The translations under genes were made by a program, and so were the position numbers. A stretch of DNA of 64,000 nucleotides from Giardia intestinalis (taxonomy: Eukaryota): NCBI GenBank assembly GCA_000002435.2, contig CM018790.1, one strand, 5' to 3'. This document shows positions 1 to 39,589 of this stretch, piece by piece. Below the pieces are notes generated by a model. It ran no database searches. It saw only the letters and a program-made list of their open reading frames with translations, and was not told where the DNA came from. Positions within the stretch are counted from its first letter, which is position 1. Each line of letters opens with the position of its first letter.

Positions 1-30
1 AACTACGCCAGAAGTAAGTTGCCTGTTGGC

Positions 31-3000
31 ATGAGCCTCCAGCACGCCAGCGGTTCTCCCTCGGGTGATATCAGACAACACATTAAAAGACTGTCGCCCC
101 TGGATATAATCAGACTCAACTCTCTGGATTGTGCCAACAGCCCAGCTGACGTAGTCAAGGAGCTTATTGAAAACTCTTTGGATGCTGGGGCCACGGTTGT
201 CAAGGTCTTCTACTCCTACTATGGATACAGAGAAATCGCGGTTTATGACAACGGATTGGGGATTTCTGGCTATGACGATAGCTTCGAGGTCATTGCCAAC
301 AGTAATTGCACGAGCAAGATCCGCATCTACGACGAGATCTTCTCTGTGCGGACGTACGGATTCCGAGGCAACGCCCTAATGTGGATCAGTTTAAAGGGAG
401 AGCTTCAGATATTCAGCCGCGGGAGCGATGATGCAAAAGTCATGCGAGCCATCTATGTCAACGGTGGTCTCTTTTCTATCGTCTCTATTCGCACAGAGGA
501 CGAGGAGTACGTCCTTCGGTCGTTTGTTGGTCATACTACCATAGACGTGTCAGGAAGATTCACCATTATGGTTGTCTCGAATTTTGGCGATAGTCGCCGT
601 GAAACGGAGATGTCTCCTTCTACACAAAGGAGCGAGCTGGAGGATACCGTTAAGCGCTACGCCATACCCCACTATGACAAAGAGTTCCTTCTCTACGATA
701 CAGATATGAACATTCCCATTCTTGCTTTGGAAAAGCGGCCCAGTATCTATGACAGGCTATTTGATATCCGACGAGATATATTTACCTCAGGTCACGTTGA
801 GGGCGGGCAAGCTAGGGCTCCATCAGATACACCTACTGGGGCGCCATCTCACTTGATCACCCGATCGACCACCTTATACATTTCAGAGAAGGAAATCTTG
901 CAAAGCCCTTTCTATGTTGCCATTAAGAACAAGCACGAGAGTCGTCGTTCTCTTTCTACATGCGCCCCTTCTATTTCTATAGAGAACCACGACACAGCTA
1001 CCTGTACTACACGGGTTTCGAGCACATGTACGGCTAGGGCCAGGGATGCCCGTAGTCCAGAGACCTTCCGGGTGGTGAATCTCGATCAACGTGAAACTCT
1101 GAAAAGGACGTCATCTGCTCCAGCTTCCCTTGGATCACCGGTCATGTCTACTCTTCCTCCAGTTCCTGATACTCTTTGGTACACAGACGCGGTCACAAAG
1201 GGGGACAACTCGGCCCAGATTCGACTTGTTCCACAACTAACTCCATTACTCCTAGCATCGTACTCCACTGGATCCTTACACTTATCAGAAACCTCAGCAG
1301 CCCCAGGAAAGCAGTTACATTTGAAGCACTGTCGCTTCATTAGAGAACTTAGTCACCATTGTCCATCGCACCATAGCTATGTCGCTGCACTTCAGATTTC
1401 CATCCACGCAAGCAATCCACTAATTCATCCTATAGCTAGAAAAAGTTCACAGCAAACTGCGCTCATAAATAGCCTCGTTACTGGCAAGACGATGATGAAT
1501 GCAAATTTGGCCGTGCTCCTATATTATAATAAACGGCCAGTCATTTCAAAGCGTCTTTTCGACGGAATACATGCATGCATAAACGCGTATTTCAAGGAGA
1601 TCTGCGGCCCTAGCCTACTGTTGATAATCATGGAATCGGTTCAGGGCACCTGCTTCTGCGACTTGGATAGAACCCCAGAGAAGAAGTTTATTACATTTGG
1701 AAAGTACATTGGGAAACTTATTCAGGAGAGAATCCTGAGGCTGTTGTCATCCATCTTTTCAAAGAATCTGGGTCGCAAACGGGTGCGGCTCAATGAACAC
1801 CAGCGTCTCCTGGCGAAGGCTAATATGTTTGGCGACTCATTAGACATAGGTGCCAGCGCCAACTCCCACGCCTTGCGATTATTAGGCGGACTTCATGGTG
1901 TGGCGCGGATGGATCCAGCAAAGCTTCTCGACTTTGATTACAGGCTCAGTCTCTTCTTTGAAAAGTGCACTCAGTACCTTTATGAACGGATCTTCGAGGG
2001 CGCGGCTGGGAGCGAGTACCATAGCGGGGTAACAAACCTTGACTCTCGCGCGGCAACGCGGCATATCAACAACAATGTGATCGTCAAGACAATTAAACTG
2101 TATCGTGAGGAGTTCAAAACCTTCGATCCTTATGCTCTGGTGCACCGGAACGTTTCTGAGGAGGTTATGGGCCACAACGGCCCACACTGCCAGACACTCA
2201 CTTCAAATCGCTCTCCTATGGGCGAACAAGGCAGTTGTCGAAAGAGCCACACAGTTGAAGCACGTAGTCCAAGACAGACAGGGTCACATAAGAGCGCTCA
2301 GTCCTGCAAAATCAGCAAGGTGACCACAGATATCATGAAGCGGGTTCTTGGCTGTGACTTTCACACCATCAGAAGTCTCAACAATCCAGTCAAGAAGAAT
2401 TACAAGGCCTTGTTTCTGTCTACCTATCTGCTCTATGGTTCGCAGTATGCGTTGATCAAAAGCTTCACCTTGATGCGTCCGGATCTCATCACTGGTATTT
2501 TGCAATTGGCGCCACATGTTGGCCATTCTCTCAACTATGGTTCTGGCGTTTCTCTCAGCGTCTTGGCGGCTATCTTCAACTCCATTAATAGTTCCTCTGC
2601 CCCAACTGCGGTGCGGTATTCTAAGGTGTATGCCCTGTCCAGCTGCCAGGAATCTAGTGACTGGGTTTCTGAGGCCAAATTTGTGGCCAGGAATCCGTCT
2701 AGCAGCGTCTTTGCACTCAGATCTAGACATACCAGACACTCCTTGCAGGGCAAACAAAAGAACAGCCATATTGCCCCGCCTCCGTCTTCTACTGTCAAGC
2801 TCGTCGGTAGCGCACCTGATGTCCAGCTTCCTGAGACAGTTTCCTCCCGACTAGACACGTCTTACATACCAACTATGACTGCTAGCATGGCGTCGCCCCT
2901 CCTAGAGTATTTGACGCAATTTGCCACCAAGACTGCACACCCAACATCTTACCAGGACGACTGCACCGACATCTCCGAAGTCCCGCTGCACGAACCTGCC

Positions 3001-4455
3001 GGACTCTCTACCAGCAGCGAGTCAAGCAGATCTCCCTCACTATCGACTTCTCGACGCCCCCGTCCCAAACTGAGCTCCCTCACCATTCCCAGTGACGATA
3101 CTTCAAATATGGGAAAAACTGAGGCTCAGTGCAACTCTGAATCGCAGGAGCATGATGCTTTAGAGTACTGTGAAATCTTCAATCCGATCTCAGAGGCAGA
3201 AAAATCGATTGAAAGCGTTGTCAAGCAACGTGATCTAACTCTTTCGTCAGAGGATTATCAAGAAGATAACTATTACAAACTAAAAAGGTTCACTCGAGTA
3301 TTTGACCTTGACGTAATTAGGTCACGCTTTCATCACCTTGAGAACCATGTAATCCTCGTTCTCGAAGAAGAACTGAAGGAGAAAAGGCCCATTAGCCATA
3401 TTTTAGGGCCTAGCCCCAGAGAGGCTCGGGCGGCAAAAGAAAAGCAGAAAACACTTGTTGATTCTTCCGGGAAAAGGGAGATTTTCACAGAAGCAGATAT
3501 TAAAACAATGGGGAAGCAACGATTAGATGCCATGTCAGATGCTATCTCAACCAGCGAGCCGATTTCACTAGCCCGCATAAATAGCTATATTCAGAGCCAG
3601 AAAACGTTGATTTCAAAGGCAGAGCTGAATATTGGAAATCTGATCAACATAGATGGCACTATTGTGGCATATTACAATCTTGACAATTATTGCTGCAATC
3701 TAAATGCAACCAGAGTGACAACTAAGGTATTCAAGATCATTCTTCTTAAGTACTGGTTGGGAAACGCAGTAAAAAGCCTCTACAATCCATCCGTTTCCTT
3801 TCACAAAGTTCCCTTGATGCGTGTGCCAGCGCACTACAACGTGCTCATCGAGACGTTTATCGATCTGTTTGTAGCAGTGGGTATCGGCGTCTCTGTAGCT
3901 GATAATAGAGTGGTAGCGGCGTCAACAAAAGTCACAGGCATGGCCCCTATTCCCAGCCAGATATGCATTCAATTACTAATTCACCCCCTGCTACTCGTCA
4001 GCGAATATTATCAATGCTTTAGGCTTCTATTTGAAGCAAACAAGACAGCAGTGCCGACTGAGTCTGACTTCGAGCAATTCTTATCCAAAATTCAGCTGCT
4101 TCTTTTCTACGATCATCTGGAAGCCCCGGACCCTATCAGTATTGGAAAGCACAAGGCGCTTCGGAAGAGACTAGGTGTGCTGACCTATGGACATCCGATA
4201 CGTATCGAATGCTTGAAAGATATAAATTACACTATTCCTTACTCCAACAAGACCATTAAACTGTTTATCCACTACTACTGTGAGTTCCTGGCTACCCACT
4301 TTATCCGCGTAGCGTACGAAAGTCAGTCTGCAGAGGTCATCAGAGCGTACTTCCGCCTCGTCATTGATCATCTGAGCGTGGAAGACTTGGACACGCCATA
4401 CAAGATGCCAATCTATACAGAGAACGAGGCCCCGGCGATTGACCAGACGCTGTGA
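31..4455 (+). CDS. MutL-family (MLH/PMS-type) GHKL ATPase, putative DNA mismatch-repair homolog with a long C-terminal extension. First ATG is at 31, the frame is open to base 1, so the true 5' end may lie upstream of the window.
   Basis: N-terminal motifs KELIENSLDAGAT (MutL motif I, ELVENSLDAGAT), YDNGLGI (DNGxGI) and TYGFRGNAL (GFRGEAL) in the order expected for the MutL ATPase domain. The ORF finder start at 19 is a TTG. No DQHA(x)2E(x)4E endonuclease motif was seen in the C-terminal half. Confidence 0.6.
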   Translation: MSLQHASGSPSGDIRQHIKRLSPLDIIRLNSLDCANSPADVVKELIENSLDAGATVVKVFYSYYGYREIAVYDNGLGISGYDDSFEVIANSNCTSKIRIYDEIFSVRTYGFRGNALMWISLKGELQIFSRGSDDAKVMRAIYVNGGLFSIVSIRTEDEEYVLRSFVGHTTIDVSGRFTIMVVSNFGDSRRETEMSPSTQRSELEDTVKRYAIPHYDKEFLLYDTDMNIPILALEKRPSIYDRLFDIRRDIFTSGHVEGGQARAPSDTPTGAPSHLITRSTTLYISEKEILQSPFYVAIKNKHESRRSLSTCAPSISIENHDTATCTTRVSSTCTARARDARSPETFRVVNLDQRETLKRTSSAPASLGSPVMSTLPPVPDTLWYTDAVTKGDNSAQIRLVPQLTPLLLASYSTGSLHLSETSAAPGKQLHLKHCRFIRELSHHCPSHHSYVAALQISIHASNPLIHPIARKSSQQTALINSLVTGKTMMNANLAVLLYYNKRPVISKRLFDGIHACINAYFKEICGPSLLLIIMESVQGTCFCDLDRTPEKKFITFGKYIGKLIQERILRLLSSIFSKNLGRKRVRLNEHQRLLAKANMFGDSLDIGASANSHALRLLGGLHGVARMDPAKLLDFDYRLSLFFEKCTQYLYERIFEGAAGSEYHSGVTNLDSRAATRHINNNVIVKTIKLYREEFKTFDPYALVHRNVSEEVMGHNGPHCQTLTSNRSPMGEQGSCRKSHTVEARSPRQTGSHKSAQSCKISKVTTDIMKRVLGCDFHTIRSLNNPVKKNYKALFLSTYLLYGSQYALIKSFTLMRPDLITGILQLAPHVGHSLNYGSGVSLSVLAAIFNSINSSSAPTAVRYSKVYALSSCQESSDWVSEAKFVARNPSSSVFALRSRHTRHSLQGKQKNSHIAPPPSSTVKLVGSAPDVQLPETVSSRLDTSYIPTMTASMASPLLEYLTQFATKTAHPTSYQDDCTDISEVPLHEPAGLSTSSESSRSPSLSTSRRPRPKLSSLTIPSDDTSNMGKTEAQCNSESQEHDALEYCEIFNPISEAEKSIESVVKQRDLTLSSEDYQEDNYYKLKRFTRVFDLDVIRSRFHHLENHVILVLEEELKEKRPISHILGPSPREARAAKEKQKTLVDSSGKREIFTEADIKTMGKQRLDAMSDAISTSEPISLARINSYIQSQKTLISKAELNIGNLINIDGTIVAYYNLDNYCCNLNATRVTTKVFKIILLKYWLGNAVKSLYNPSVSFHKVPLMRVPAHYNVLIETFIDLFVAVGIGVSVADNRVVAASTKVTGMAPIPSQICIQLLIHPLLLVSEYYQCFRLLFEANKTAVPTESDFEQFLSKIQLLLFYDHLEAPDPISIGKHKALRKRLGVLTYGHPIRIECLKDINYTIPYSNKTIKLFIHYYCEFLATHFIRVAYESQSAEVIRAYFRLVIDHLSVEDLDTPYKMPIYTENEAPAIDQTL

Positions 4456-4536
4456 CTCCTGTCTACTGCAGTTCCTAAAGTATTTTGAATTCATTTTTGA
4501 GCAAAATAATTGTAACAAAGAGAAAAAGGTATCTAC

Positions 4537-5865
4537 ATGGGCAAGGAGAAGAAGCACATCAACCTCGTCGTCATCGGGCACGTCGACAACGGGAAGTCGA
4601 CGCTGACGGGCCACCTCATCTACAAGTGCGGCGGGATCGACCAGCGCACGATCGACGAGTACGAGAAGCGCGCGACGGAGATGGGCAAGGGCTCCTTCAA
4701 GTACGCGTGGGTCCTCGACCAGCTCAAGGACGAGCGCGAGCGCGGGATCACGATCAACATCGCGCTCTGGAAGTTCGAGACGAAGAAGTACATCGTCACG
4801 ATCATCGACGCCCCGGGCCACCGCGACTTCATCAAGAACATGATCACGGGGACGTCCCAGGCCGACGTCGCGATCCTCGTCGTCGCGGCGGGCCAGGGCG
4901 AGTTCGAGGCCGGGATCTCGAAGGACGGCCAGACGCGCGAGCACGCGACCCTTGCGAACACGCTCGGGATCAAGACGATGATCATCTGCGTCAACAAGAT
5001 GGACGACGGCCAGGTCAAGTACTCGAAGGAGCGCTACGACGAGATCAAGGGCGAGATGATGAAGCAGCTCAAGAACATCGGCTGGAAGAAGGCCGAGGAG
5101 TTCGACTACATCCCGACGTCCGGCTGGACCGGGGACAACATCATGGAGAAGTCCGACAAGATGCCCTGGTACGAGGGCCCGTGCCTGATCGACGCGATCG
5201 ACGGGCTCAAGGCCCCGAAGCGCCCGACCGACAAGCCCCTCCGCCTCCCGATCCAGGACGTCTACAAGATCTCGGGCGTCGGGACCGTCCCCGCGGGCCG
5301 CGTCGAGACGGGCGAGCTCGCGCCCGGGATGAAGGTCGTCTTCGCCCCGACGTCCCAGGTCTCGGAGGTCAAGTCCGTCGAGATGCACCACGAGGAGCTC
5401 AAGAAGGCCGGGCCCGGGGACAACGTCGGCTTCAACGTCCGCGGGCTCGCCGTCAAGGACCTCAAGAAGGGCTACGTCGTCGGGGACGTGACGAACGACC
5501 CGCCCGTCGGCTGCAAGAGCTTCACCGCCCAGGTCATCGTCATGAACCACCCGAAGAAGATCCAGCCCGGCTACACGCCCGTCATCGACTGCCACACCGC
5601 GCACATCGCGTGCCAGTTCCAGCTCTTCCTCCAGAAGCTCGACAAGCGCACGCTCAAGCCCGAGATGGAGAACCCGCCCGACGCAGGCCGCGGCGATTGC
5701 ATCATCGTCAAGATGGTCCCCCAGAAGCCCCTGTGCTGCGAGACGTTCAACGACTACGCGCCCCTCGGCCGCTTCGCCGTCCGCGACATGAAGCGCACCG
5801 TCGCCGTCGGGATCATCCAGGAGATCGACAAGGAGGAGTTCAAGCCCCCCAAGGGCGGCAAGTGA
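4537..5865 (+). CDS. EF1A: Translation elongation factor 1-alpha (copy 1), 442 aa.
   Basis: Protein starts [35 protein letters not shown] and contains DAPGHRDF and NKMD GTP-binding motifs, full-length eEF1A. GC3 is extremely high, unlike the flanks. The overlapping ORFs 4171..5604(-), 4485..6071(+) and 4620..5018(-) are GC-driven frame artefacts. Confidence 0.97.
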
Positions 5866-5871
5866 GTAAAC
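5865..5871 (+). terminator. Giardia-type polyadenylation signal AGTAAAC (AGTRAAY) overlapping the EF1A TGA stop.
   Basis: The sequence aagTGAGTAAACgtc lies directly at the stop, and the identical arrangement occurs at copy 2. Confidence 0.6.
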
Positions 5872-6211
5872 GTCTAAGCGCAGGGCCGAGCAGTTTACTC
5901 TGTTGCGGGTTGTGGGGTGTCTACATTGGGGCTGAACGCAGATGTGTCTGTGTCTTCTGCTGGTGTGTATGGTCAGTACTGCCTGCTGGCTGCTTTAGGC
6001 TCTCTTCAGAACCAGTCTCCAGTTATCGAAGCAGAAGTATCTACGAGGCGCGCATACCTGCATTGCCCTAAAAACACCTCTCTCCTCCAATACTCGTCCT
6101 TATTCGAGGCAGGGACATCGTTATACACCGATTCTCCAGGATGCCAAGCAAAGTATCACGTGGTGAAAGCTAATAAAGGATACAGCTGTAGTTTCTAGCG
6201 CAGTTACTATT

Positions 6212-8689
6212 TTAATGGGTGCTTGCAACGATAGACTGCTTGTAGAGCGGTGGAACCCCGGCCTTCTTTCGGAAGACGAAAACCCAAACCAGCACACCCG
6301 CCACACCGCCGACGACGAGGACCACGCCGATGGCGATGCCAGAGATGGCCCCCGACGAGAGGGCGGACTTTTTGGAGGTGTTGTCATACTCCAGACATAT
6401 GGGCTTGACTGCGCCCTCTGGAACCACGCAGAGGCTGCACTTGGAGATCGCCTTGTGACACGCCTTGCACGTGCTCTCGGAGAAGTAGTACCCGGCCAGG
6501 CAGGTGAAGCATGCCTTCCCATGAGGACAGGTGGCGCAGCCCTTGGAGCACGCCTTGCACGCCCCCTTCTCCAGGTAGAACCCACTGTTGCAGGCGCTGC
6601 AGACCCCACTACTACACATTGCACAGTTCGTCGGGCATGTAAGGAGCGTTCCGTTGTACGTTATCCCGTACCCGGCCACGGTGCTATCACACCAGCCGTC
6701 GCTCGCCTTCGTGCAGACAGTCTTCCCGGGGAGGAGCGTGGAGGTGTAGCACCCCCCGTTGAGGCTGAAGGAGTTCGAGCTGCAAGCAACACACCTACCG
6801 GCGGCGACATTCGCGCACGCGATGCCAACCGCCCGCGAGCCGGAGGAAGTGCACGCCCCGTTGTTGGGGTACTCCGTGCTCTTGACGCAGCGCGAGCAGT
6901 AGCTGGTCCCGCCCACCGTGAGCCCGCACTCTGCACAGCTGCTGTCCTGCACGCACTGCGGGACGCACGATCCCTTGGCACCGTCGCTGTACTGCAGCCG
7001 CCTCTTGGCAGGGCAGGAGGTGCAGTCGCCGGATGCCGGTCCGCTGCACGTGGCACACTCAGAGCTGCACGGCTTGCATCCTCCCGAGCCCTCGACGTAG
7101 AACCCGTCCCTGCATGCCTTGCACTTGGATTCCGACTCGCAGACTGCGCAGTTGCCGAGCGTGCACGCCACGCACCTCGAGACGCCCCCCACGGTGGCCT
7201 TGTAGTACCCGGCGGAGCCCAGGCAGTCCTTCACGCACAGACCGTGGGGGTCGAGGCTGTGGTCATCGGCACACTTTGTGCACACGTCTCTGTTCTCGCA
7301 CGTGTCGCAGTTGGGGTCCTTGCACTTGGTCGCCACGCACTGACTGCCGGAGAGTGTGTAGCCATACTTGCACTTCTTACAGCTCGACTCGTCACATTCA
7401 GCGCAGTTCTCCACCGTGCACCCGACACACTTCCCGTCCTTCAGATAGGACCCGTCATCGCATGCGCAGCTGTGGACCGAGGATGAGGACCCCTGTATGC
7501 CCTTCTGCCCCTTGGGACAGCTGGCCAGGCAGCTTCTCTTATCCAGGCTCAGGTAGAGGTCGCGGCACTCCAGACACTGAAGACCACTGTCCTTCATCTC
7601 ACACCTTTGGCATCCCTCTATTCCCCCGTTGGCTGAGTCCCCGCAGCGCCAGCATCCGTTGTTCTTGGTGAACACATCATTGATTGAACTGTTGCATGTG
7701 GTGCAAATGTTGTTCTCCGCTGCTTGGCAAATCGTAGTTCCTATTTGTTCTCCTGAACCATGATTAGCCGAATAGCAACCCCCGTAAAACAAATAGTAAC
7801 TAGTATCGCCCTTATTCTTGCAAGCAGTGCACCTTCCGGTTTTAGTATCCTTCACACAGATGTCAGAGAACTCAGCGATTGCCACACAATTACCCTGCAA
7901 AGGAGCCTCCGACGAGTTGGTGCATTGGACACACAGAGACCGGTCAGTTATGTCTATGATATTCTTTGGCAAACAGATACTATTACCGATTGGACTATCT
8001 ATAGAAAAGCAAGCATTAGCACTCAAGATGTGTGTTGTGGGACAACTAATACAGTATCCCGTATCTACGCCACTAGTGACAATTTTACACCGATAATCGA
8101 AGGTGCACATTGTCTGTGGCAGCGAGCATGAGAAGCAGTCTGCCTCTGTTTTCCATGCATATTTTGGGGGCTTGCAGTATTGGCAATGAATTGTTCCGCT
8201 GTATCCGCCAAAACCCACGGGATCCCCACAGTGGATGCAGCGTTCAGGAGATGTGGTATTAGGGTTTGTAAAGACTATTGGGATAGATATCTTACTGCCC
8301 TTTCCACATTCCTTGCAGACTCCACCCTCTGCCCTATCACAGATACCTGCTTTCCATCCGCCGGTCAATTCATAGCAGCCACCATAAAATAAGAAATAGC
8401 CATCACCACATTTCATGCACCATCCTCCCATTGGTGATTTAGCACAACCAGCCTTACTAACCGCTTCATGTGCGGTAGAAACACACGTTCCATTGATTGG
8501 AACGTGTTCAGAGCCACACTCTACACAAAAAAACCCACCAGCTAGGTCAAATATGCAACTATTTGGAAGGCAATTTGGCATTCCATTTTCACAAGAGTAC
8601 CCAAACCCATTGCGATATAGAGGCGTCTCCTCAGAGAAGAACCCTATCGGAAGACAGGCCAATAGCAGAACTGATAAAGATCGTGACAT
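6212..8689 (-). CDS. High-cysteine membrane protein (HCMP, VSP-like), 825 aa, with signal peptide, CXXC/GGCY-rich ectodomain, one C-terminal TM helix and a short basic tail. It is not a CRGKA-type VSP.
   Basis: N-terminus MSRSLSVLLLACLPIGFF. Dozens of CxxC pairs. Three GGCY motifs (YFLFYGGCYE, YLFYGGCYS, NGGCYTS). C-terminus ISGIAIGVVLVVGGVAGVLVWVFVF followed by RKKAGVPPLYKQSIVASTH. AT-rich initiator region upstream of ATG at 8689. Confidence 0.8.
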   Translation of the reverse strand: MSRSLSVLLLACLPIGFFSEETPLYRNGFGYSCENGMPNCLPNSCIFDLAGGFFCVECGSEHVPINGTCVSTAHEAVSKAGCAKSPMGGWCMKCGDGYFLFYGGCYELTGGWKAGICDRAEGGVCKECGKGSKISIPIVFTNPNTTSPERCIHCGDPVGFGGYSGTIHCQYCKPPKYAWKTEADCFSCSLPQTMCTFDYRCKIVTSGVDTGYCISCPTTHILSANACFSIDSPIGNSICLPKNIIDITDRSLCVQCTNSSEAPLQGNCVAIAEFSDICVKDTKTGRCTACKNKGDTSYYLFYGGCYSANHGSGEQIGTTICQAAENNICTTCNSSINDVFTKNNGCWRCGDSANGGIEGCQRCEMKDSGLQCLECRDLYLSLDKRSCLASCPKGQKGIQGSSSSVHSCACDDGSYLKDGKCVGCTVENCAECDESSCKKCKYGYTLSGSQCVATKCKDPNCDTCENRDVCTKCADDHSLDPHGLCVKDCLGSAGYYKATVGGVSRCVACTLGNCAVCESESKCKACRDGFYVEGSGGCKPCSSECATCSGPASGDCTSCPAKRRLQYSDGAKGSCVPQCVQDSSCAECGLTVGGTSYCSRCVKSTEYPNNGACTSSGSRAVGIACANVAAGRCVACSSNSFSLNGGCYTSTLLPGKTVCTKASDGWCDSTVAGYGITYNGTLLTCPTNCAMCSSGVCSACNSGFYLEKGACKACSKGCATCPHGKACFTCLAGYYFSESTCKACHKAISKCSLCVVPEGAVKPICLEYDNTSKKSALSSGAISGIAIGVVLVVGGVAGVLVWVFVFRKKAGVPPLYKQSIVASTH

Positions 8690-9945: not shown

Positions 9946-11647
9946 CACCAGCAGAGGAACCCGACAAGCCCTCCGACGACGACGATCACGGCGACGGAGA
10001 TCCCCGCGATGGCACCCGTGGAGAGGCCGCTCCTATTACTGCCAGAGGACACACACCTGCCACCCTCCAGACTGTACCCATCACTGCACTCCCCACACAC
10101 ACCGTCCATCACACAGCTCTTGCAGTTGGTGTCAGAGCACAGCACACACCCAGTGCCATCCCTGTTGGGCTTCTTACCACTGTCACAAGAGGTACATATA
10201 GCGGGGGCCATGCCAGCTGTTGTTAGAGCTGTCGGGGCTGTGCACTGAGAGCAGCCATCCACCCCCACGTATGCCTTCTGACCAGCCAGCTCGACCCCAA
10301 GGGGGTTCCCACAGGAGAGGACAGACTGCTTGTCCTTGGTGGGCGAGGGAGGGATGAAGTACCCGCTGCCGCCTCTGTGCAGACACCCTCGCCTGCCTTT
10401 GTGCACATATGACTACCAGGTTGAGTTGACACACTATAGCAGCCTCCCATGTACAAGAAGTATCCTGTAGTACATGATGTACATGTATGATTGTTACAGT
10501 TATTCTCCTCTTTCTTTTCATTCCCAACACATAGTCCATTAATGGGGAACTCACTGTCCTTTCCACAGTATGAACAGTAGTGATGCTCCTTCCCTGTGTT
10601 GTCGATCACTATTGCATCGCAGGCTCCAGAAGTACCACCACAAGCCGTGGGGTCTTCACAAGTCTTCTCACACGTGACCGCTCCTCCAGCCCCTACCTTC
10701 TTTTGGTAGTTCACCTTACAAGAGTCACAAGTAAACGAGCCAGAGAGGGTGCACGTTGCACAGCCGGGCACTCCATCTGTCGGATCGTCGCATGGGACGC
10801 ACTTCTTGGTCCCGTCATTCTTTAAGAAAAACCCTGGCTTGCACTTTTCACAGGTATCTATAGCGCCTCCTGGCCCGCACTTTCCGCAATCGCCAGCGCA
10901 CGCAACGCATACGGCGGGGTTACCGTTCCCGCTGTCGTAGTAGCCATCGAGGCACGTCTTGCATTCTGGCTTAGCGCCGTTCTTGCTGCAGGTCCCGCAA
11001 CCGGGGCTTCCCTTGTTATTATCTGTCTTGCTGCTATCGTTGCTACATAGTATGCATTCGGCATCTCCGTCGCTCAAGAAGTTCTCACCAGTTGCTCCGC
11101 TTTGAGTGCAGGTGCCGGCGTCTATACACGTAGTCGTCCCGTCGGCCTCTTCCTTGACTATCTTAGCTCCATTACATGCCGTGCACTTTGGGCCCCCAGT
11201 TGCCGGGTTGTACTCACACGTGGTGCAATCAGTTATTGCAGACGCCTTGCAGGTCATTGTCACAGGGTCAGCATAAGTGTTTCCAGTGCATCCATCACTA
11301 TTCACGCATGCATTATCCTTCAGGAACGTATTTCCCTTACAAGAGGTACACTGGGTCTCTGTAGTCTCACAGGTCAGACAGGACTGATCACACTTCTCAC
11401 ATGTCTGAGCGTTCTTATAGTATCCATCTCTGCAGGTATCACACGTGGCCGCTCCTGGACTACCACTTGGTGCCGTACATGTGGCGCAGTTAGCCACCCC
11501 TGTATATCCATCTGCCCCATTGACATCATGACAGAGGATGCACTCGCTACCCTTCTCTGGTGTTGCATCAGGGTTCTTGAACAGGCCGTTAGCTGTGTTA
11601 CAAGTAGTGCATACTCCTCCCTCAGCCTGTGTGCATATGTCACTCCA
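9921..11647 (-). pseudogene. VSP: Variant-specific surface protein (VSP) gene, 5'-truncated (no start codon or signal peptide) and frameshifted. The 3' end is intact with the canonical ...[10 protein letters not shown] tail.
   Basis: ORF 9921..10406(-) ends [27 protein letters not shown]. ORF 10223..11497(-) in another frame is a classic CXXC-rich VSP body including YFLYMGGCYS and CTKAGEGVCTEAAAG. The two frames overlap by about 180 nt, with a 1-nt indel near 10345-10355. The body frame stays open upstream to 11647 (WSDICTQAEGGVCTTCNTANG...) with no ATG and meets an in-frame TAG at 11648-11650. Confidence 0.75.
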
Positions 11648-12419: not shown

Positions 12420-14453
12420 ATGACCAAGCATAAGAAGGCATCTTCGAGTAAGCCAGCCGAGAAGCTGGTCATCACAATAAGTACTAAGACCACTATAAGG
12501 CCTACAGTAGATGCGTCGCCTGAAAATCCTATCCTCGTTGACTCTGACCGAAACACAGTTCTCCCCTTTCTAAATCACCGGGCAATCCCTCCTGACGGGA
12601 AACCATACACCCAAAGACTTGCACGATCAGGATATGTTCCCCAGCAAAAGCATTTTGCGTTTCTTACGGCGGTTATTGAAAAGCGGAATGCAACGATGGC
12701 TGCGGGGATCATTTCCTCTGTAGTCATTCAGCAGGCCATCAGTTACATCCAGAAGCACATCAACGAAGCATTTCCCTTCCTTTCGTTGCAGCTGCAACCG
12801 TATGGGGGAGCCGTCAATGGAATCAGTACAGACGGCGGGGACATTGACTCTACTCTGGTTGTGGATAACTGTGACAGGGCAGAGCAGGTTGCTGCAGAGT
12901 ATTTCTGGTCCTTTTTACAGGAACAGGCCAGAGACAGGCTCCATGACAATCCGGTGGCTGAGGTAGATTTTCTAGATAGAGCGTTCACAGAAAGGTTTCC
13001 GTTCCTCAGATTTGATGCATCTAGCTACTATAGAGGGGTTACGCCTAGCAAGGACATCATGACAGAGTACTCACTATTCTGCCCGTCTCGCTGCCTTAGT
13101 GATGCAGCGTGTATTAGGGATCCGTCCCAGCCTATCAATGTCATGGATCTTTTTCCAGATGCTACGGCGCCGTCTGGAGAGATGGTCCATTTTATTCTCA
13201 AGCGTGCACGTTGGCAGGACATTATTATTCTGGGAAGATTGGCGGCCTCCTTCAACGCCTTTGAAGTCTCATCCTTCATAACCCGCAGCAGGATTCCCGT
13301 CCTGAAGATAAGCCTCAAATACTCTAAGAGATTATGCCAAGTTGTCTCTGCCGCGGAAACAAATGCTAAGATTGAACAGGGCCTTCTACCATCGTACTAT
13401 GCTGATCTCCCCATGAATCGTTCCGTGCAGTTCATCGTACCAGAAGGTGAAGAGAAGATAAACACTCATATAGATAGCGATATGATGCTACTAAATGTGG
13501 ACATCTGCCTCAATAATAGGCTAGCAATTCGTAATACGCTGCTACTAGCAGAGTACCTTAGAGCAGATCCGGTTGTATCGCCGCTGATACGGTGCGTCAA
13601 GAGTTGGGCGTCTGCAAGAGGTCTGTGCAATACCTGGCAAGGTGGACTGTCGTCCTACGGCTTTGTGCTGCTTGTGATCTTTTATCTCCAAATCCTTCAG
13701 ACTCCAATTCTACCGGTTCTCCAGCCTGGTCTTGGATGGGGACCCGTGGTCAGGGGCTGTGACACAGGCTTCCTTTCTGTAGAAGATGCATGGTGTCGGC
13801 GGTCTCTTATGACTGGCTTCTCCCAGCAAAAACCTGCACCGCGCAAGCCTACAATTTCAGAGCTTCTTTGTGGGTTCTTCCGTTTCTATGGATATCAGTT
13901 TGATAGTACCGACTCGGTTGTGTCTATCCGCTTGGGTCGGGCGCTCTCCAAACAAGAGAAAGGATGGGATGAGAATTCCAACGCTCAGCGCAGCCAGCGT
14001 CACGGAGAATGCTTCGATCATGCAGAGACTCATGAAAGCGTGAGAGCAGCAGATGTTCTCCGGGTATTTAGATACCCCCCAGAGGTCCCGGACGCAGAAG
14101 TGTCCCAGCACATATACACGAAAGATGGTCAGTTCTTTTATATGTGCATAGAAGACCCCTTTGAGACACATATCAATGTGGGTCGTCTTCTGGATCTTAA
14201 AACAACCGAGCTATTGGGGAAAGAGTTCAGACGTGGATATGCGCTGCTTCGGAAAACGGAGAAGCCGCTGGATCGTCTATTTCTTTCAAGCACCATCGAT
14301 CCCCCAGGCGGTAGCGATGTTCCTCTGAGTGATCTTTTACGGATGGCATCGAAATCTGCACTTCAACCTACACATGTCAAGATCGAGGTGGCTAAGAATA
14401 AAACCTTCGAATTTGTTGATACGGCACCTGTGCATTCTGATATACATGATTGA
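12420..14453 (+). CDS. Non-canonical poly(A) polymerase / terminal uridylyltransferase of the Cid1/GLD-2/Trf4 family, 677 aa.
   Basis: Pol-beta nucleotidyltransferase signature PYGGAVNGISTDGGDIDSTLVV (GS...DxD). PAP-associated domain motif VKSWASARGLCNTWQGGLSSYGFVLLVIFYLQ. Confidence 0.7.
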   Translation: MTKHKKASSSKPAEKLVITISTKTTIRPTVDASPENPILVDSDRNTVLPFLNHRAIPPDGKPYTQRLARSGYVPQQKHFAFLTAVIEKRNATMAAGIISSVVIQQAISYIQKHINEAFPFLSLQLQPYGGAVNGISTDGGDIDSTLVVDNCDRAEQVAAEYFWSFLQEQARDRLHDNPVAEVDFLDRAFTERFPFLRFDASSYYRGVTPSKDIMTEYSLFCPSRCLSDAACIRDPSQPINVMDLFPDATAPSGEMVHFILKRARWQDIIILGRLAASFNAFEVSSFITRSRIPVLKISLKYSKRLCQVVSAAETNAKIEQGLLPSYYADLPMNRSVQFIVPEGEEKINTHIDSDMMLLNVDICLNNRLAIRNTLLLAEYLRADPVVSPLIRCVKSWASARGLCNTWQGGLSSYGFVLLVIFYLQILQTPILPVLQPGLGWGPVVRGCDTGFLSVEDAWCRRSLMTGFSQQKPAPRKPTISELLCGFFRFYGYQFDSTDSVVSIRLGRALSKQEKGWDENSNAQRSQRHGECFDHAETHESVRAADVLRVFRYPPEVPDAEVSQHIYTKDGQFFYMCIEDPFETHINVGRLLDLKTTELLGKEFRRGYALLRKTEKPLDRLFLSSTIDPPGGSDVPLSDLLRMASKSALQPTHVKIEVAKNKTFEFVDTAPVHSDIHD

Positions 14454-17019: not shown

Positions 17020-17184
17020 GTATTTTTATTCCTTTTGGCCATGAAATCTTGAAACAGGCAAACCAGATACCCAGGGAAACGGAAACATTTACTCATCTGG
17101 GTCCTGCCCAACAACTAATTACATTGCTTTGCGGAAGCAAAGCATCTCATCAGCATCCTCTCCGAAGATTAATAATTGTTATTA

Positions 17185-20100
17185 ATGAGCGGGTACTTCA
17201 CAGATCTCCAAAATGCGGAGGTTTTGCGAGCAGCTGAATCGATAGTAAGCTCTGGACAGGCTGTGCTTCTATGTGGCCCTTCAGCCTCTGGCCGAACAGC
17301 TCTGCTGTCACATCTTGCATCTAAGCTTGGCGCAAAGCCACCCATCCCCCTACACCTTACTACTGCGCAAGATACCCGTGACCTAATTGGATCTTATGTT
17401 ATGACAAACAAACCGGGGGATTTTCGCTTTATTCTTGGCCCCCTTGCTTATGCCGCTCAATCAGGCCGCTGGATTAGTATAGAGGAGATCACAACCATTT
17501 CACAAGACTCCTTACTTCTCCTTTCATCTGTTGTTAACACCAGGACACTTTCTGTAGGATCATACCAGATTTCTGTGCATCCAGACTTCAGGATTCACGC
17601 CAAGACCAGTGCTGACCCAGCTCTCCTCAGCACGATCGTTAAAAGCATGTTTTATCCCCTTGTTCTGCCTCCTCTTGGCAACCACTTATTTCAAGTGCTT
17701 ACAAAGCATTGCAACAGGGGTATTTGTACCATATTGGCACACATTCACGTCCAGTTTGAAACGCACAGGTTAACAGCAGGGCGGATTTCAGCCAGCGATA
17801 TGGTCAAATGGGCTCGGAGAATCGACCTTGATCTCAAAAACGGGGGTGCTGTGTTGAACAAGGCCGTCCAAGAGGCCTCGGCAGGCACTGCTGCCACGAC
17901 TCTAGTATCATGGCTTGACGATAATACGCGTATGGTTATGATTAAGAATGCATGGGAGGCGTTTGTCCTTAGGTACTCCAAGGAGCAGACCCGGAGGGCC
18001 TTTCTTGATATACTCCGACTCTCTCTCAATATCCACGAGGAATTGATGCTATCAACGCTACTGAAAATAAAAGTCGATATTCGCCACGACTATACGCAGA
18101 AGCGACTTGTCTGTGGGCGCGTATCTCTTCCTTTCTATGAATCTCCAGACGAGCGCTCTCTTGATGATATCTGTAGAACAAACCACACGACAAGATTGCT
18201 AGAAATCATATCATCTGCTATTAGAAACAACGAGCCTCTCCTACTGGTGGGGCCCACCGGAATAGGCAAGACCACGTGTCTGCAAGTCATAGCGCGAGCC
18301 TTGGGAAAGAAGCTACACGTTGTCAACATGTCGAGTCAAACAGATGCAGCAGACCTTCTAGGAGGCTATGTGCCCGCCACCTTGGATCGCATCTTGAGGA
18401 ACCTCTATGATGCCATCACAGGCAGTCTTGGGCTCTACATTTCTGTCAGAAAAAACCAGATCTTTGTTACGGAGCTTCACAAGTCATACGCAGAAAAGGA
18501 TATAGCAAAATTCCTAGCTAACTGTGAAACCGCGTTATCCGGAATGAGACAAGTTCTCAGAAAGGAGGTCGGGGAGGTGGTGGAACAGGGCTCTACTGAA
18601 CAGCGAGTGTCACACGATAAAAAATATGCCAGAAGAGGTACATATGAGAACTCTCTCTATTTTCTGCAGTCTCTGGGAGATACCCTAGAGCAGGCAACTG
18701 AATTGCACAAGATCCTCTGTCACGAGGTAGAAACTAAGAAGCCGACCATGGCCTTTAAGTACCAAGAAGGTCTCCTTGTGCAGGCGCTCGTGAAAGGCGA
18801 CTGGATTCTTATAGATGAGATCAATCTTGCGAGCTACGATCTGCTTGATGTGATCTCTCAGCTGGTCAATCCTGAGCACAACGAGATTGCAATCCCAGAC
18901 AAAGGATTTGTAGCAAAGAACCCTCACTTCAGAGTCTTTGCAGCCATGAATCCGGGGAGCGATGTGGGGAAGAAGGACCTGCCACCGACCATTCGCCGTT
19001 GCTTTACAGAAATAAACGTTAGCGAAATGTCTGATGACGTGGACATTGTTGCTCTTACCAAGTCGTATCTGCGAATGGATGATGCAATGATAGAGGATCG
19101 TCAGGGTCTCGACCCTAATGTCGTTTATCAGCTTTTCACCGTGCTGAAGGCCAGGGCGAAGACAGATCTGGTCACCGCCGCCGAGGCCAAGTCTCCTTGC
19201 TTCAGTCTACGTTCTCTGTGCCGCGCTCTCAGCTTTGCGCATCGATTCCGTGCAGCTGCAGGACTTCGCCGCTCCATGTACGAAGGATTCATGCTAGCAT
19301 TTGGATCAATGCTCAATGAAAAGAGTAGACAAGCAGTGCATGCGTTGATTCTTGATAAGCTACTTAATGGAAACAAAGAATACCTGCTAAATCCATTCAT
19401 CATACAACCATTTAATAAGCCATGCACCGCTATGATCTTCCAAGCCACCACAAAGGACGAAGCCGTCACCGTGGAATATCAAGAGCCACAGGCTGCTCAC
19501 GGGTTTCTTGAGGAAGAGAAATCCCGGGCTCGAAGCACTGACTATGTGCTGACAAAATCAACCAGATCATACATGACGACAATCTCTAGGGCCATCGCTG
19601 CCCAACTTCCAATCCTTCTGGAAGGTACGACATCGTCGGGGAAGACAAGCCTCATCAAGCACATTGCCAAGCAGTTTGGCTGTCCCATTACGCGCATTAA
19701 TAACCATGAACATACAGACCTCTCGGAGTACTTTGGGTCCTACCAGCCAGATCCGCTGACGGGTCAGCTTGTTTTCAAAGATGGGCCTCTCGTGACTGGG
19801 ATGAAGCAGGGTCACTGGGTCATTCTGGACGAACTTAACATGGCGTCTTCGGAGATTCTTGAGGCCCTTAACAGGCTTCTAGATGACAATAGGGAGCTTT
19901 TGGTTCCTGACACACAGGAGATCGTTCGGCCTGCCCCTGGCTTTCTCTTATTTGCAACTCAAAATCCATCCGGATCATATGCGGGGCGAAAGATGTTGTC
20001 TGAAGCCTTTCAGAATCGCTTTATCATGATAGAGTTTGCTGATATATCAACAGAGGAGCTGAAAGAGATCCTAATCAATAGAAGTACAAGCCGTCACCTT

Positions 20101-23100
20101 GCTCCCCAATATTGTGAGAAGTTGATCACCACTATCCAGGCTATAAAGATGCAACTGAGCCACAGAAATAACAATGCAGTCATGACTAACGCGCTCATCA
20201 CCTTGCGTGACCTCTTCCGGGTTGCTGATCGTCTGCCTCGCACGCTTACTGAGCTTGCAATGGGGATTTTTGAATTGATCGGTGAGCGACAGCGTGACCC
20301 AGCAGACAAACAACTGGTAGCAGAGATCATCGCCAAAAACCTGGGGCTCAAAACATTCTCGGTTTCGGCAGCGGAGCAAGAGTACGCCATTCGAGTGCGA
20401 CCAATTCAAAGTATGATTGAGAAGGCTCTCAAGGCGGGCGCTGATAGTCCCAAGTCGGCCTTCTTGTTGAAATTTCAGGACATCGTGTGGACTCCGAGCA
20501 TGATCAGGCTTTTCGCCCTCTTGTTCACCTCCGTTTCCAATGGGGAATCGCCACTGCTTGTTGGAGTGAGTGGAGCGGGCAAAACGACATCCGTGGAGCT
20601 GATTGCAGCCATCATGGCCCAGCAATTAGTGCAGGTCAATCTTCATAAGCATACAGAAAGTGCAGACTTCATAGGAAGCCTGCGTCCATTGCGTTCTCGT
20701 GAGTCTATGCATGCCCATCTCTCAGTTCTAAAGGAGTATGCAGCCACAACTACAAATGTAGATAAAGCTGTCTATGCCGAGATAAAGCGCCTTGAGACAA
20801 CGCTTGGGACTAAGCTATTTGAATGGGAAGATGGGCCGATACTGAATTGTATGAAGCGTGGCCACATTTTGTTACTAGATGAGGTCTCACTGGCTGACGA
20901 GTCTGTCCTCGAACGACTCAACTCAGTCTTGGAGACATCTCGCGAGCTCACTGTTGCTGAGAACCCAAACATGCCTCGGCCAGTGATTGCTCACACCGGG
21001 TTCAAGCTTATTGCGACGATGAACCCTGCAGGAGATTATGGGAAGAAGGAGCTTAGCCCTGCAATGCGATCCCGTCTTACTGAGTTTTGGATGCCGCATA
21101 TTCGAGACATCAATGAGGTTAGAATGATTTTAACAAGGAAGCTGCAGAAGACTGCCATCTATCGCTTAGGGCACCAACAAGGTCTTGATGTGGTCTCACT
21201 CTTGGCGGACTTCTTTGCAGAGATGGATAGAATAACACAAAGCGGCAGACTAGGAGATGTGTTTACTCTCAGTATTCGAGATATCCTGGCAGTTTGTGAT
21301 TACATTACAGAGGTGCAGACGAAGGAGGGTACTGAACTGGGGCAGATGCTCATCGATGCCGTCACGTTATCTATCTTAGATGGGCTCCCGGTTCGCACAC
21401 AGCTGGGAAATATGCCCGCTTGTCGTGAAGTTAAACACGAAATGGTTCTCTACCTTGCCAACCGCATTCTTTCCGCAAACCTGACAGACATCGATTTGAT
21501 CCAAGACCTAACAGTTAGCATTTCCAAAGACACCAACGAATTGACGTTTCTTCAAGCCTCTACACAAACCGTTTTGGCTACAATCCCTCCTGGTCCGCAA
21601 TACAACCATGCAAAGGCCCTTCGAAAGATGACATCGTTTAGGCTAGACGCTCCCACAACCATTAAGAACGCGTGCAGAATCGCCAAGGCGCTTCGGTTTC
21701 AGAGGCCGATTCTCTTGGAGGGCGATCCAGGCGTGGGAAAGTCCGCTCTAGTATCTGCCATTGCGGAAATCTGCGGGTATTCACTAGTCAGAATTAATCT
21801 TTCAGAACAGACAGACCTCTCCGACCTTTTAGGGTCTGATTTGCCTGCAGAGAATGGCTTTCGCTGGGTAGATGGTGTCTTGTTGAAGGCCGTTAAAGAA
21901 GGCGCCTTTATTCTTCTAGACGAGCTCAACCTGGCCAATCAGACCGTCCTGGAAGGTCTCAATTCACTTCTTGATCACCGCAGAAGCCTGTTCATTCCAG
22001 AGTTGATGCTCTCCGTCAAATCTCCGGATACCCTTCGGATCTTTGGCACCCAGAACCCTCGCTCGCAGGGTAGTGGTCGCAAGGGTCTTCCGCAATCCTT
22101 CATCAACCGATTTCTTAACGTGTACGTAGATGTATTAAAGAGTCAGGACTATGACTGGATCTTGAGCAACCTTTTCACCGATATCCCCACATACGTACTT
22201 GACTACATTCTCGGGTCCACTAAACAGCTTCGAGCAGGTTTGGAAGAGCTGAAATTCGGCATATCTGGCGGCCCGTGGGAGCTAAATGTTCGCGACATGA
22301 TGCGGCTCTGTGACATGTTGACTACAACCCCTGGCCTCGCACAAGGCATCACCCTGGCTCATGCCAAGCACTATGCACATATTCTATTTGGATATCGCTT
22401 TCGGACCGCTGATGATGATGCGTACGTCCAAAATGTGCTATTTTCTCCACACTCTCTTGACAGCGTTGCAGAAGCCACACAGTCACACCACTGGTACTCA
22501 CTACGACCTCTTTGGAACGTCACAGAAGACGTTGTGAAAATTGGCTCTCTTGCTATACCACGCATTGACCCTGTGTTTAGAGACGTTTTAGGGACGAAGC
22601 TGTCTTATGCACACACCTCGTGTTTCCTTACAGCACAGCTAGTTGCTTTAGAGGCACTGGCAGTAGCAGTGACACAGAACCTGAGCTGCATTTTGGTTGG
22701 ATCTCCTGAGTCTGGGAAGAGTAGCATTCTACGGACTCTTGCAGATGTTGTAAGACAGCCACTGGTCCACATTTCAGCAAGCACAGCAACAGATGTCTCA
22801 GATTTGATTGGTGCCTACGAACAAGTCGATGTTTTGTATGACTTGAAGAGTGTCATTAGAGATTTGTGTCTTTTCGTTCACTCACTGCCCATAAAGGCTT
22901 CTTACTCTGCTATCTCCTTCTCTGAATTCCTAAAAGACCTCACCGCCTCTCTCGATAGAGAGATTGGGGACGGATTGGGGTCCAAGAGCCGTGCGATATC
23001 AATGGAATCAATCGTTTCAGAGGTTGTACAGAAGCTTCTTCTGGAATTCATGGCTAAGTTTTCTCCGGATCTCGACTCTGGTGGACTAGCAGCCAAGAAC

Positions 23101-26100
23101 TTTTCCCTTTTCTGTTCAGAGATACTCACTCAAGACACAACACCTGTGGACGAACGCTTTTCACCTCACATGCCAACAATCCCCGAACTATGCAAGAGCA
23201 TGGCATCCCTCTATTTGTCCACTCAGCAGAGCCAGACAGGGCGCTTTGTGTGGAGGGACTCAGAGTTGATTCGGGCACTTGAGCGTGGTTACTGGGTAGA
23301 GCTGACAAACGCAAATTTCTGTATGCCTTCTGTTCTCGATAGACTCAATTCTCTTTTAGAGCGTGGAGGTGGTCTAGAAATACTAGAGCAAGGACTTGAG
23401 GAAACACGCTCCATTAAAGTGCACCCAAATTTTCGGCTCTTTATCAGCTACGCGCCCACAAGTGACATTTCTCGTGCACTCAGAAATCGCTCGCTAGAAC
23501 TGTCAATAGACATTCAGGTTTCTCATTACAATCTGCTTGATATTGTGCGTTGTGTCTACACGAGCTCAACTGCCAGTGGTGTCTCGCTAGATCCGTACTT
23601 GATAAAGCTCGTCTCACTGGTCTACTTTGAGCTTTCCAGAGATAACCCGGAGATTGTTGGCCTGGGGCTTCTCTTCAAATGGCTTAAGCTTCTTGTAACT
23701 TACCACAAGCGATTTTCCACGTCGGTTGGCGACCCCAAAGCAGTGTCCTCTTGGGTGGACCGCAGCTTCAGCTCTGTGTTCATAGCATCGACTCTGAACG
23801 CTGACCTCCATCGACAGTATATGCAGGTGTACCAGAACGCACGCCTGGCACTACAGGGAGATGGAAGCCTAGAGGCGTGTACTTTAGTTGAAGCTGCAGC
23901 TGTATTGAATCAGTTAACCTTGGGTGCCGTTAGAAAGCTCAGTATAAGCAATTCACTACAACATAGCTTGGCTTTGCTCGAGCTGCGTACTACCGTCAAA
24001 CCACTTGATCAGCTTGTCTCTCTTGCTGATCAAGAACCCCAGATCATGGAACCCTTCTCTCAAGTTAGTGGATGGCTAGCAATATGTGTAGGTCATTCAC
24101 TTGATTTCCAACACCACAAGGAGCTAGTCTCCAATTTGCTTACTAGCACAGATATAAATCCAATGTATCTGCTAACTCCGCCCGAGCCTTCAAGCCAGGC
24201 GTTGCTGAAGTACATATCACAAGGCTATCTTGATATGTACTCAAGTCCCGATTCGATTATCCACCAAGTTATTAAGTACGTCTCTTTATGCAGTCCTTTT
24301 TACGCCTCAATTCTCAAGCTTTTTATTGAGGGAAAGTTCACAACAAAAGATTCTTATCTACTATTATATTTGATAGAACTGTCTCAACATCTAGCGACTG
24401 ACCCCAATAACTACGATTATGTAGCCCTTTTCTTCTCCTTGTTTGAGCTTCTCATATCTCATTCCATAGACCCATCAACGAAGACATACTCTCTCGGCCA
24501 ACGTCAAGTCATGAGGACGTTCTTTGACATGATCTTGACAGATCAGTACTTCGAATCGATGCCGAGGCTTCTTTCAGGATACATTAGGTCTTTGTTCATT
24601 TCTGCGGCACGAAACGATCTAGAGACTGCCTGGCTCGCTGTCCGCAAGAACTTAGCGCTGGCGCGCATTTCAGTCCACTACCTTCCAGAGTTATTTAAAG
24701 TGTTTAGATACGTAATTGAACGACTGAATCTTTGCATCTCTCCAGAGGGCGTTGTGTTCCTTCAAGAAGGACTATCGGACAGCATTACAGCAAGTCTCTG
24801 GAAGGACATCTTGGCGACCGTCATATATATGGCATGTAGGGCAGATGACCAAACTGGTGATTATGTCCCAAAGCTTGCAATCCTGCAAGACTCGGCAAAC
24901 CGCATCGATCTTTGCGCATCGAAGCTCTCTGGCAATCAGCACCCGACAGCTCGTGCCTTAGCTCAGATGCAATCGCTTTTCTTGCTATTTACAGGAAAAG
25001 CCTTTTGCATGCAGGTGTCGGACACTCTCGAGGGTTGGTCGCAGAGAGATTTGACGACACAACTACCGATTCTCCTCTTCAGATCCATGAGCTTCTATCA
25101 TAGAAACGCTGCGGGGCCAATTACATACCTTAGGGGCCCAATCTTTGTCAGCACCGGGGAGTTCGTAACAAGCTCTCTGTCTGTTCCCGCTCTTCTGACT
25201 AATGCTATTGAAGAGCAGGCAACCTCAGTTCTCAAATCTCTCTTGTGCAGAAGTGAGGACTTTCTGTCGTATGTCGGTAACGTCATCAACTCCATTACAA
25301 CGATTGTGCTGCGGCTATTCTTCGCAGCCCTTGAGCGTGAAGCACCATCGTGTGACTTTACTGACGGCTCTTTCCAACTCTTCGCTCTCATTCTAGAAAC
25401 AATAGTTCACTCCAGCAACCCCCTTCTAGCGTCTCTCACTCAAGGAGTTGAAGATATTCTCAAAGCTATCATATCTGTGCAGCTTTCTCCAAGTCCTCTT
25501 CTTTTGTCTGGACTTGTTCTTACTGTTGCATCGCTAGTCCTCTACTTGCTCACGTCTATAGCTAATCAACGTGATCCGATAGTTATGACCAAGCATAGAG
25601 AAGTCCTCTACAGACGTCTGGCCAAACTGATTGCGACTTCCATCGAAGATTCTAAGCTGCACGCCTTGTTCGTGTTTGGAGACGGCGCGCTGTCTGAGAG
25701 CTCCTCGATATACAAAGAGCTATCGACACTTTACAATTCTTATGCCGAAGCAGCTGATCAGTATGCAGCTGAGCTGCTTGTGAGAGCAGATGACGAAGAT
25801 AATACATTCTTTGAAGATCTGTCGTCTCAATTAGCCAGTTTGGATGGCTTTGAGGTACATGTGTTGACTTTTGTTTCTGGGGTATTGAATTTGGAGAAGG
25901 TCCTCCAAATGCACGAGAGCACGGAGTGCATTGAGGCTATCCTTGATGGACTTGCTGTAGCCGAACGCCAAATATCAACCACTCTAGCTGCTCTTCTCCC
26001 CAGACTCATAAACTATACCGTTGAGAGCAGCTACTATCTCGATATGACCATTCCCATAGCCTCTTTTCTAATGTGTCTTAGGGTAGGGCTTTCTGCCGTT

Positions 26101-39163: not shown

Positions 39164-39589
39164 TCCAAAGGCCTGTAAGTTTTTATTTCATAGTATCAGC
39201 CAGCCAACACGAAGACTACCGGAAGCTCTCCTATGAAACTGCAGAAAGGCGTTTCCTTCACGGGCAATATCTGTCATTATGGCATCGAGTCCTTACCTTA
39301 GTGTGCACGTACTACCATGTGTCTATGAAAGCTCACTAGCAGATTTATTGAAGCATGTTGCAGACCATCAACACGCGTATGTTTCTACTCCCATTTGTAA
39401 TACCACAGGCTCTTCGACTGACGCTACTGGCAGAGAGCATAGTATATGTTGGTAGTTCTTCGTCACTCTTCAAGAGTAACTTAAAGACCCTTTGCTGGGT
39501 AACATTTGCCATTCAACTGTTCAGCCTGAGATCCATTGCAGCTAGTATGCACGGCACGTTCGCCAGACGAGGGCAGAAATATAAAGATA

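Follow-up and report, generated by a model that had tools for sequence, protein, structure and literature searches.

Probable concerted evolution of two dispersed EF-1alpha genes in Giardia intestinalis

The stretch of Giardia intestinalis DNA considered here (contig CM018790.1 of assembly GCA_000002435.2; hereafter the window, 64,000 nt, all positions being counted from its first letter) carries two genes for elongation factor 1alpha (EF-1alpha), both on the plus strand: copy 1 at 4537-5865 and copy 2 at 41911-43239, each spanning 442 amino acids (aa) plus stop. Both are uninterrupted open reading frames (ORFs), the gene being without an intron, and both encode the same protein, which is 100% identical over 442 aa to Giardia duodenalis/intestinalis EF-1alpha in NCBI and UniRef and 85% identical to a Spironucleus salmonicida protein. 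Pfam analysis returns the full eEF1A domain set in the expected order, GTP_EFTU, D2, D3 and eEF1A_C (PF00009, 4e-57; PF03144, 9e-17; PF03143, 7e-25; PF22594, 2e-34). These are the two dispersed EF-1alpha genes of G. intestinalis assemblage A, in a WB-like genome.

An ungapped comparison of both regions at a fixed offset of 37,374 nt agrees with the original prediction, made from the window sequence, of two copies 37 kb apart that encode an identical 442-aa protein, differ at two synonymous sites and are identical from the exact ATG to 20 nt past the TGA. Positions 4537-5885 correspond to 41911-43259, i.e. 1349 nt with 2 mismatches, the left edge of identity being the ATG itself (4537/41911) and the right edge lying 20 nt 3′ of the stop codon (5885/43259). 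The first mismatch (4776 C, 42150 T) falls on the third position of codon 80, coding position 240, and the second (5697 T, 43071 C) on the third position of codon 387, coding position 1161; both are synonymous. The shared 3′ tails are thus the 20 nt after each stop codon (5866-5885 and 43240-43259, plus strand), and a poly(A) signal-like AGTAAAC overlaps the stop codon of copy 1 (TGAGTAAAC, 5863-5871). Beyond 4536/4537 on one side and 5885/5886 on the other the match drops abruptly to about chance level, and the only similarity left in the flanks is the 7-nt AAAAGGT at -13 to -7 (4524-4530 and 41898-41904, plus strand). The earlier description of the flanks as unrelated therefore stands apart from this heptamer; the pairwise alignment gives sharp borders and no extended flanking homology past the gene, a picture that a plain segmental duplication does not match. 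A repeat search found no other direct or inverted repeat of at least 40 nt in the whole window, and Rfam and tRNA scans of it returned no matches.

Each copy sits in its own, recognizable gene context. Copy 1 follows a gene at 19-4455 (plus strand, ~1478 aa, weak HATPase_c_3 match, start codon uncertain) that anchors the orthology of this locus: in assemblages A, E and B alike, a gap of 81-82 nt separates EF-1alpha from a HATPase_c_3 gene of 1473-1481 aa. Immediately 5′ of copy 2 lies a 624-aa gene without Pfam match (39536-41410, plus strand), which anchors the copy-2 locus, and before it a 960-aa gene (36281-39163, minus strand). The corresponding succession of a NAC-domain gene, a divergent gene of ~960 aa and a gene of 606-624 aa is found in A, A2, E, B and a further, more divergent Giardia lineage, called X here (L026-L029 and L032; SRR17450158, SRR17450160, ERR3333379, ERR3333381), in which the copy-2 upstream region is recognizable; in B and X contigs the order reads NAC (minus), 959 aa (minus), 606 aa (plus). 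Identity over the 400 nt 5′ of copy 1 is 78% for A against B and 87.5% for A against E, over the 400 nt 5′ of copy 2 it is ~57% and 70%, respectively, and the two upstream regions do not align to each other. Since A, B and E each have both contexts, the duplication predates the split of these assemblages.

The polarity of the duplication can be read from Giardia muris, for which one EF-1alpha place is on record. It is flanked by a NAC gene (minus) and, directly upstream of EF-1alpha, an 848-aa gene (minus), an arrangement syntenic with copy 2; the 848-aa gene is homologous to the 960-aa gene of the window (tblastn E = 8e-93), which serves here as synteny anchor. Since the G. muris neighbours have their homologues upstream of copy 2, 41911 is probably the older locus and 4537 the daughter. 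Taken with the contexts in A, B and E, the gene order suggests that the duplication occurred after the G. muris split and before A, B and E diverged.

Independent assemblies reproduce the pair. In DH (assemblage A2), a 129-kb contig carries all of copy 2 together with the 3′ part of copy 1; the two point the same way, their stop codons are separated by 35,603 nt (from the record coordinates) and their flanks are those of the window. Contigs with each of the upstream contexts are present in P15 (E), and the copy-1 upstream context is found on a contig of GS (B). Short-read data call for more caution: among Logan short-read contigs of assemblage A isolates (L003-L006), upstream and downstream flanks are joined in all four combinations. 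Such assemblies collapse the 1.35-kb repeat, make chimeric joins across the copies and misrepresent gene order, and this arbitrariness limits what they prove.

With two loci older than the assemblages, the coding sequences would be expected to group by locus if each had evolved on its own; they group by lineage. Pairwise differences, counted over the 1329 nt of the coding sequence, amount to 2 between copies 1 and 2 of WB and 1-2 between the B sequences of copy-1 and copy-2 context, as compared to 5 between A and E, 23-25 between A and B, 73-76 (~5.6%) between A and X and 77-80 between B and X. Paralogues within a lineage are therefore closer than orthologues between lineages. There are 22 sites at which the two A copies agree in a base that differs from the one in all three tabulated B sequences (L014, L011 with the copy-1 upstream context and L017 with the copy-2 context); three of these sites change an amino acid, and most of the 22 are third-position C/G swaps between equally GC-ending codons. 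Copies that cluster by lineage at loci older than the lineages argue for sequence exchange between the loci. A scan of JGI metagenomes with the start of the coding sequence returned a single contig, which is not from Giardia (627 of 1329 positions differ).

The two mismatches of the window fit the same pattern. Whether they are fixed among isolates had been left as a question by the original prediction: every other lineage has C at both sites, as does DH copy 1 at coding position 1161. It is on this account that each T of the window is taken as derived, copy 1 having its private T at 5697 and copy 2 its own at 42150. Each copy would thus carry one young C-to-T change to a less-used codon. Short-read contigs cannot place the T at coding position 240 at either locus.

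We regard concerted evolution by interlocus gene conversion between the two EF-1alpha loci as very probable. The suggestion of ongoing gene conversion made in the original prediction gains support in the form of ongoing or recurrent conversion, given both contexts in A, B and E and the 22 lineage-specific sites shared by the copies. As we picture it, a single EF-1alpha gene would have been duplicated after the G. muris split and before A, B and E diverged, 41911 being the older locus and 4537 the inserted daughter. Homologous-recombination repair may then have copied one locus onto the other repeatedly and without crossover, so that any new substitution would be lost again or come to stand in both copies and the pair would evolve as one sequence. 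Conversion would run only where the loci are still alike, in A between the ATG and the 20th nt after the stop codon, while the parts outside this block would stay private to each copy: a conserved AT-rich upstream region and downstream DNA bearing a variant-specific surface protein (VSP) gene. Very strong selection on codon usage (GC content at third codon positions, GC3, of 0.99) and purifying selection on the protein would slow divergence and would be insufficient alone. The two C-to-T differences could then be young mutations, one per copy, awaiting erasure. The non-crossover nature of the repair, and its activity at present, are what we infer from this comparison. One gene of the 37-kb interval bears on the former: the plus-strand ORF at 17176-31692 (4838 aa, six AAA_5 plus midasin lid domains) resembles the midasin/Rea1 ribosome-biogenesis ATPase, and a crossover between the direct repeats would delete it, which fits the notion that such crossovers are not tolerated.

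Several points weigh against concerted evolution as laid out here. No conversion event has been seen directly, and with only two differences a mosaic tract is undetectable inside this genome. For assemblage B, the full-length coding sequence on the copy-2 context comes from one short-read metagenome contig (L017), further B contigs of that context (L030, L031) reach only +17, and the linkage of coding sites to a flank is firm only within read length of that flank, e.g. at site 81. The P15 and DH copy-1 sequences are partial and do not span the E- or A2-specific sites, and the copy number in G. muris comes from a single database look-up. As to assemblage B, a single coding sequence was obtained in the ten B-type loci listed, and B copies that differed at 20-odd sites would not collapse in this way.

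The borders of the homologous block differ between lineages. In A and E the 5′ border is the ATG, copy 1 reading ggtatctac and copy 2 ggtc[c/t]ccga just upstream of it. In B both contexts share positions -13 to -1 (aaaagacctccga) and differ from -14 on. Four independent contigs of lineage X begin at exactly -13 and the contig of copy-2 context ends at +17, an overlap of 30 nt (-13 to +17), the length that a k=31 graph would leave at a junction at -14. Since the forms in B (gacctccga) and X (ggctctga) resemble that of copy 2, the A/E copy-1 form appears to be a derived patch that shifted the border from -13 to the ATG and has been kept since the A/E split; the AAAAGGT heptamer of the window would be the vestige of the -13 border that is intact in B and X. 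The presence of a copy-1 context in lineage X is itself suggested by the contig junction only. A search for the copy-1 locus of X with the last 600 aa of the gene upstream of copy 1 (2653-4452) gave no match at E <= 1e-10, the candidate step having probably been swamped: the same query missed clear orthologues in L003, L011 and L022.

At the 3′ side, sequences past the first 6-20 nt differ among A copy 1, A copy 2, E, B and X. The B contigs with the two upstream contexts (L011 and L017, which may represent either two loci or two isolates) are identical to about +68 and then ~84% alike over ~300 nt. The different 5′ border in B and X as compared to A and E means that the homogenized block has changed over time. 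As the borders vary by lineage and the 3′ flank turns over fast, we take them to mark how far homology has survived under selection for the coding sequence and the poly(A) signal, and not to reflect a mechanism tied to the transcript. The latter had been implied by the original prediction, according to which conversion is confined to the transcribed unit. For A this is nearly accurate, the block from the ATG to +20 being close to a transcript with the 16-nt 3′ untranslated region (UTR) reported for EF-1alpha and the 1-14 nt of Giardia 5′ UTRs (PMC3610916), and AGTAAAC conforming to the Giardia poly(A) signal consensus AGT[A/G]AA[T/C] (PMC1872034); it does not extend to B and X, where the block starts at -13, nor to the 3′ side of B, where it reaches about +68.

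The near coincidence of block and transcript raises the question of whether copy 1 is a processed retrocopy of EF-1alpha mRNA, or whether cDNA templated later conversions, an explanation compatible with concerted evolution. The ancestral block, from -13 (B and X, with the heptamer as vestige in A and E) to about +20, is roughly the size of an mRNA with the short UTRs just mentioned; histone transcription starts at A triplets 1-27 nt 5′ of the ATG (PMC1872034); and copy 1, the derived locus, sits in an 81-nt intergenic gap. Against this, copy 1 reads agggccgagcag after +16, with no A-run or poly(A) remnant, and shows no target-site duplication, no direct repeat being found between 4500-4523 and 5886-5910. 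The identity also extends 4 nt beyond the reported poly(A) site (+16), and the B contexts are identical to about +68 and still alike for some 300 nt, past any poly(A) site. Loss of introns is of no use as a test, the parent gene having none. We consider a retrocopy unlikely on this evidence. Slightly less likely still is the specific scenario in which copy 1 arose by reverse transcription, e.g. by the enzyme of a Giardia non-LTR retrotransposon, landed in an AT-rich gap that came to serve as promoter and was homogenized through cDNA. If true, copy 1 would be a processed retrogene that functions in a putatively asexual protist almost devoid of introns. The original prediction had also offered a very recent retro-style duplication, which is not supported, given the age of the duplication and the missing poly(A) remnant and target-site duplication.

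Recent duplication of any kind, by DNA or RNA, with the copies too young to have diverged and no conversion involved, would account for only 2 differences in 1349 nt, yet it is highly improbable: both contexts occur in A, A2, B and E with diverged orthologous flanks, and lineage-specific coding substitutions are present in both contexts. We give as little credence to an old duplication held identical by purifying selection on protein and codon usage alone, with no exchange. The codon bias of EF-1alpha is indeed extreme (GC3 of 0.991, against 0.49-0.65 in neighbouring genes) and accounts for a coding sequence that is 98% identical between A and B next to flanks at 57-78%. Selection of this sort cannot, however, bring the 22 lineage-specific changes, mostly C/G swaps between codons that end equally in GC, into both copies alike, and offers no account of the B-specific -13 to -1 segment common to both copies. 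Practically negligible is an assembly artefact, be it a double placement of a single gene or a wrongly joined contig. Short-read assemblies do mis-join the repeat flanks in each of the four possible ways; still, independent assemblies repeatedly show the same two upstream and two downstream contexts, the single DH contig holds both copies ~35.6 kb apart with the flanks of the window, and PMC9928461 speaks of two genes.

The prediction that the copies have different initiator regions agrees with the sequence, which shows two distinct regions, each conserved across lineages: the 81-nt intergenic region 5′ of copy 1 (4456-4536, plus strand; conserved in A, E and B, its last 6 nt, given as tatctac, being A- and E-specific), and ~45 AT-rich nt 5′ of copy 2 (41866-41910, plus strand; conserved in A, A2, E, B and X). 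Both are putative promoter/initiator regions. Tagged EF-1alpha has been expressed from 200-250 bp upstream of GL50803_112304 (PMC9928461), so that the upstream region of this gene, whose counterpart is one of the two window copies, is active. We infer that both regions act as promoters.

The pair itself has been described before. PMC9928461, citing Skarin et al. 2011, describes GL50803_112304 and GL50803_112312 as alike except for two silent nucleotides and the up- and downstream regions. The window pair appears to be these same genes: the protein agrees, as do the two silent differences, with no difference in sequence. The two-copy, two-silent-difference observation is therefore already published. 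Neither EF-1alpha gene is listed in the supplements of PMC3610916, and no paper on concerted evolution of the pair across assemblages was found in the searchable literature, Skarin et al. 2011 being known via citation only. What is new are the flank contexts in B and E, the polarity from G. muris synteny, the clustering by lineage and the lineage-specific borders. The feature is real, was accurately described from the sequence and was already known, and our additions extend a textbook phenomenon only a little; with the pair and its silent differences already in the literature, it is of minor weight as a discovery.

Concerted evolution of elongation-factor duplicates is a textbook pattern, and sex and recombination are debated in Giardia. 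Saccharomyces cerevisiae has two unlinked eEF1A genes, TEF1 and TEF2, that encode identical proteins and have near-identical coding regions and unrelated flanks; the yeast genes stem from a whole-genome duplication and lie on different chromosomes, whereas the Giardia copies come from the duplication of a single gene and share a chromosome. The bacterial tufA/tufB genes likewise are two near-identical dispersed copies of a homologous elongation factor kept so by recombination, their gene conversion being attributed to Abdulkarim & Hughes 1996 and Lathe & Bork 2001 in PMC4342817. Giardia differs in being a eukaryote, in having its copies in direct orientation 37 kb apart and in that recombination between them is deduced from sequence comparison. 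Closer at hand, the core histone copies of Giardia are dispersed as well, with identical coding regions and 5-16 nt of shared 3′ non-coding sequence, and the authors suggested recent duplication or gene conversion (PMC1872034). These histone copies share 50-99 nt of 5′ non-coding sequence including the promoter, as against 0 nt (A, E) or 13 nt (B, X) in EF-1alpha. A 2010 survey of Giardia duplications considered that conversion could explain highly similar duplicates, with the mechanism "still unresolved" (PMC2829556).

For Giardia biology, the pair provides clean sequence evidence that non-allelic recombination has operated repeatedly. There is also a practical side, as ef1-alpha is listed as a Giardia genotyping marker: with two co-evolving copies, mixed base calls at this gene can reflect differences between the copies and not mixed infection or allelic heterozygosity. 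Because short-read assemblies mis-join the flanks of the repeat, gene order at the EF-1alpha loci should be trusted from long-read assemblies only.

The 3′ flank of EF-1alpha looks like a rearrangement hotspot. A VSP or VSP-like cysteine-rich gene lies 3′ of EF-1alpha at both copies in A, in E and in G. muris; among L002, L011, L017, L021, L023 and L026, the B downstream sequences have weak cysteine-rich/VSP-like similarity only and those of X none. No nucleotide similarity was found between the B and A downstream flanks, for which tblastx returned generic cysteine-rich/VSP similarity only. The neighbouring genes of the window include three Giardia VSP genes. One, at 6212-8689 (minus strand), is convergent with copy 1 and has a DH counterpart 97.9% identical over 3 kb; another lies downstream of copy 2 at 43670-47104 (plus strand). 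The sequence downstream of P15 copy 2 is 73-74% identical to the VSP gene next to copy 1 of the window, and 86% to a VSP 3′ end, which we attribute to VSP-family similarity and not to orthology, a rearrangement or a chimeric contig. The fact that X contigs run unbroken for ~700 nt downstream was likewise dropped as evidence of shared DNA, since these assemblies cross repeat junctions arbitrarily. A 424-aa ORF at 10223-11497 (minus strand), with a weak partial VSP match (PF03302, positions 114-248 only), may be a VSP fragment or another cysteine-rich protein.

The gene of 606-624 aa lies between the ~960-aa gene and copy 2, whereas in G. muris the 848-aa homologue adjoins EF-1alpha directly; the difference points to a gain in G. 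intestinalis or else to a loss or relocation in G. muris. A search among 5.8 billion proteins gave only four homologue clusters for the 624-aa gene. Elsewhere in the window, all on the plus strand, are a Cid1-family poly(A) polymerase/terminal uridylyltransferase-like gene (12420-14453, 677 aa), a gene for a CFAP65-like ciliary protein (47732-55120, 2462 aa) and an ABC transporter gene (55292-58003, 903 aa).

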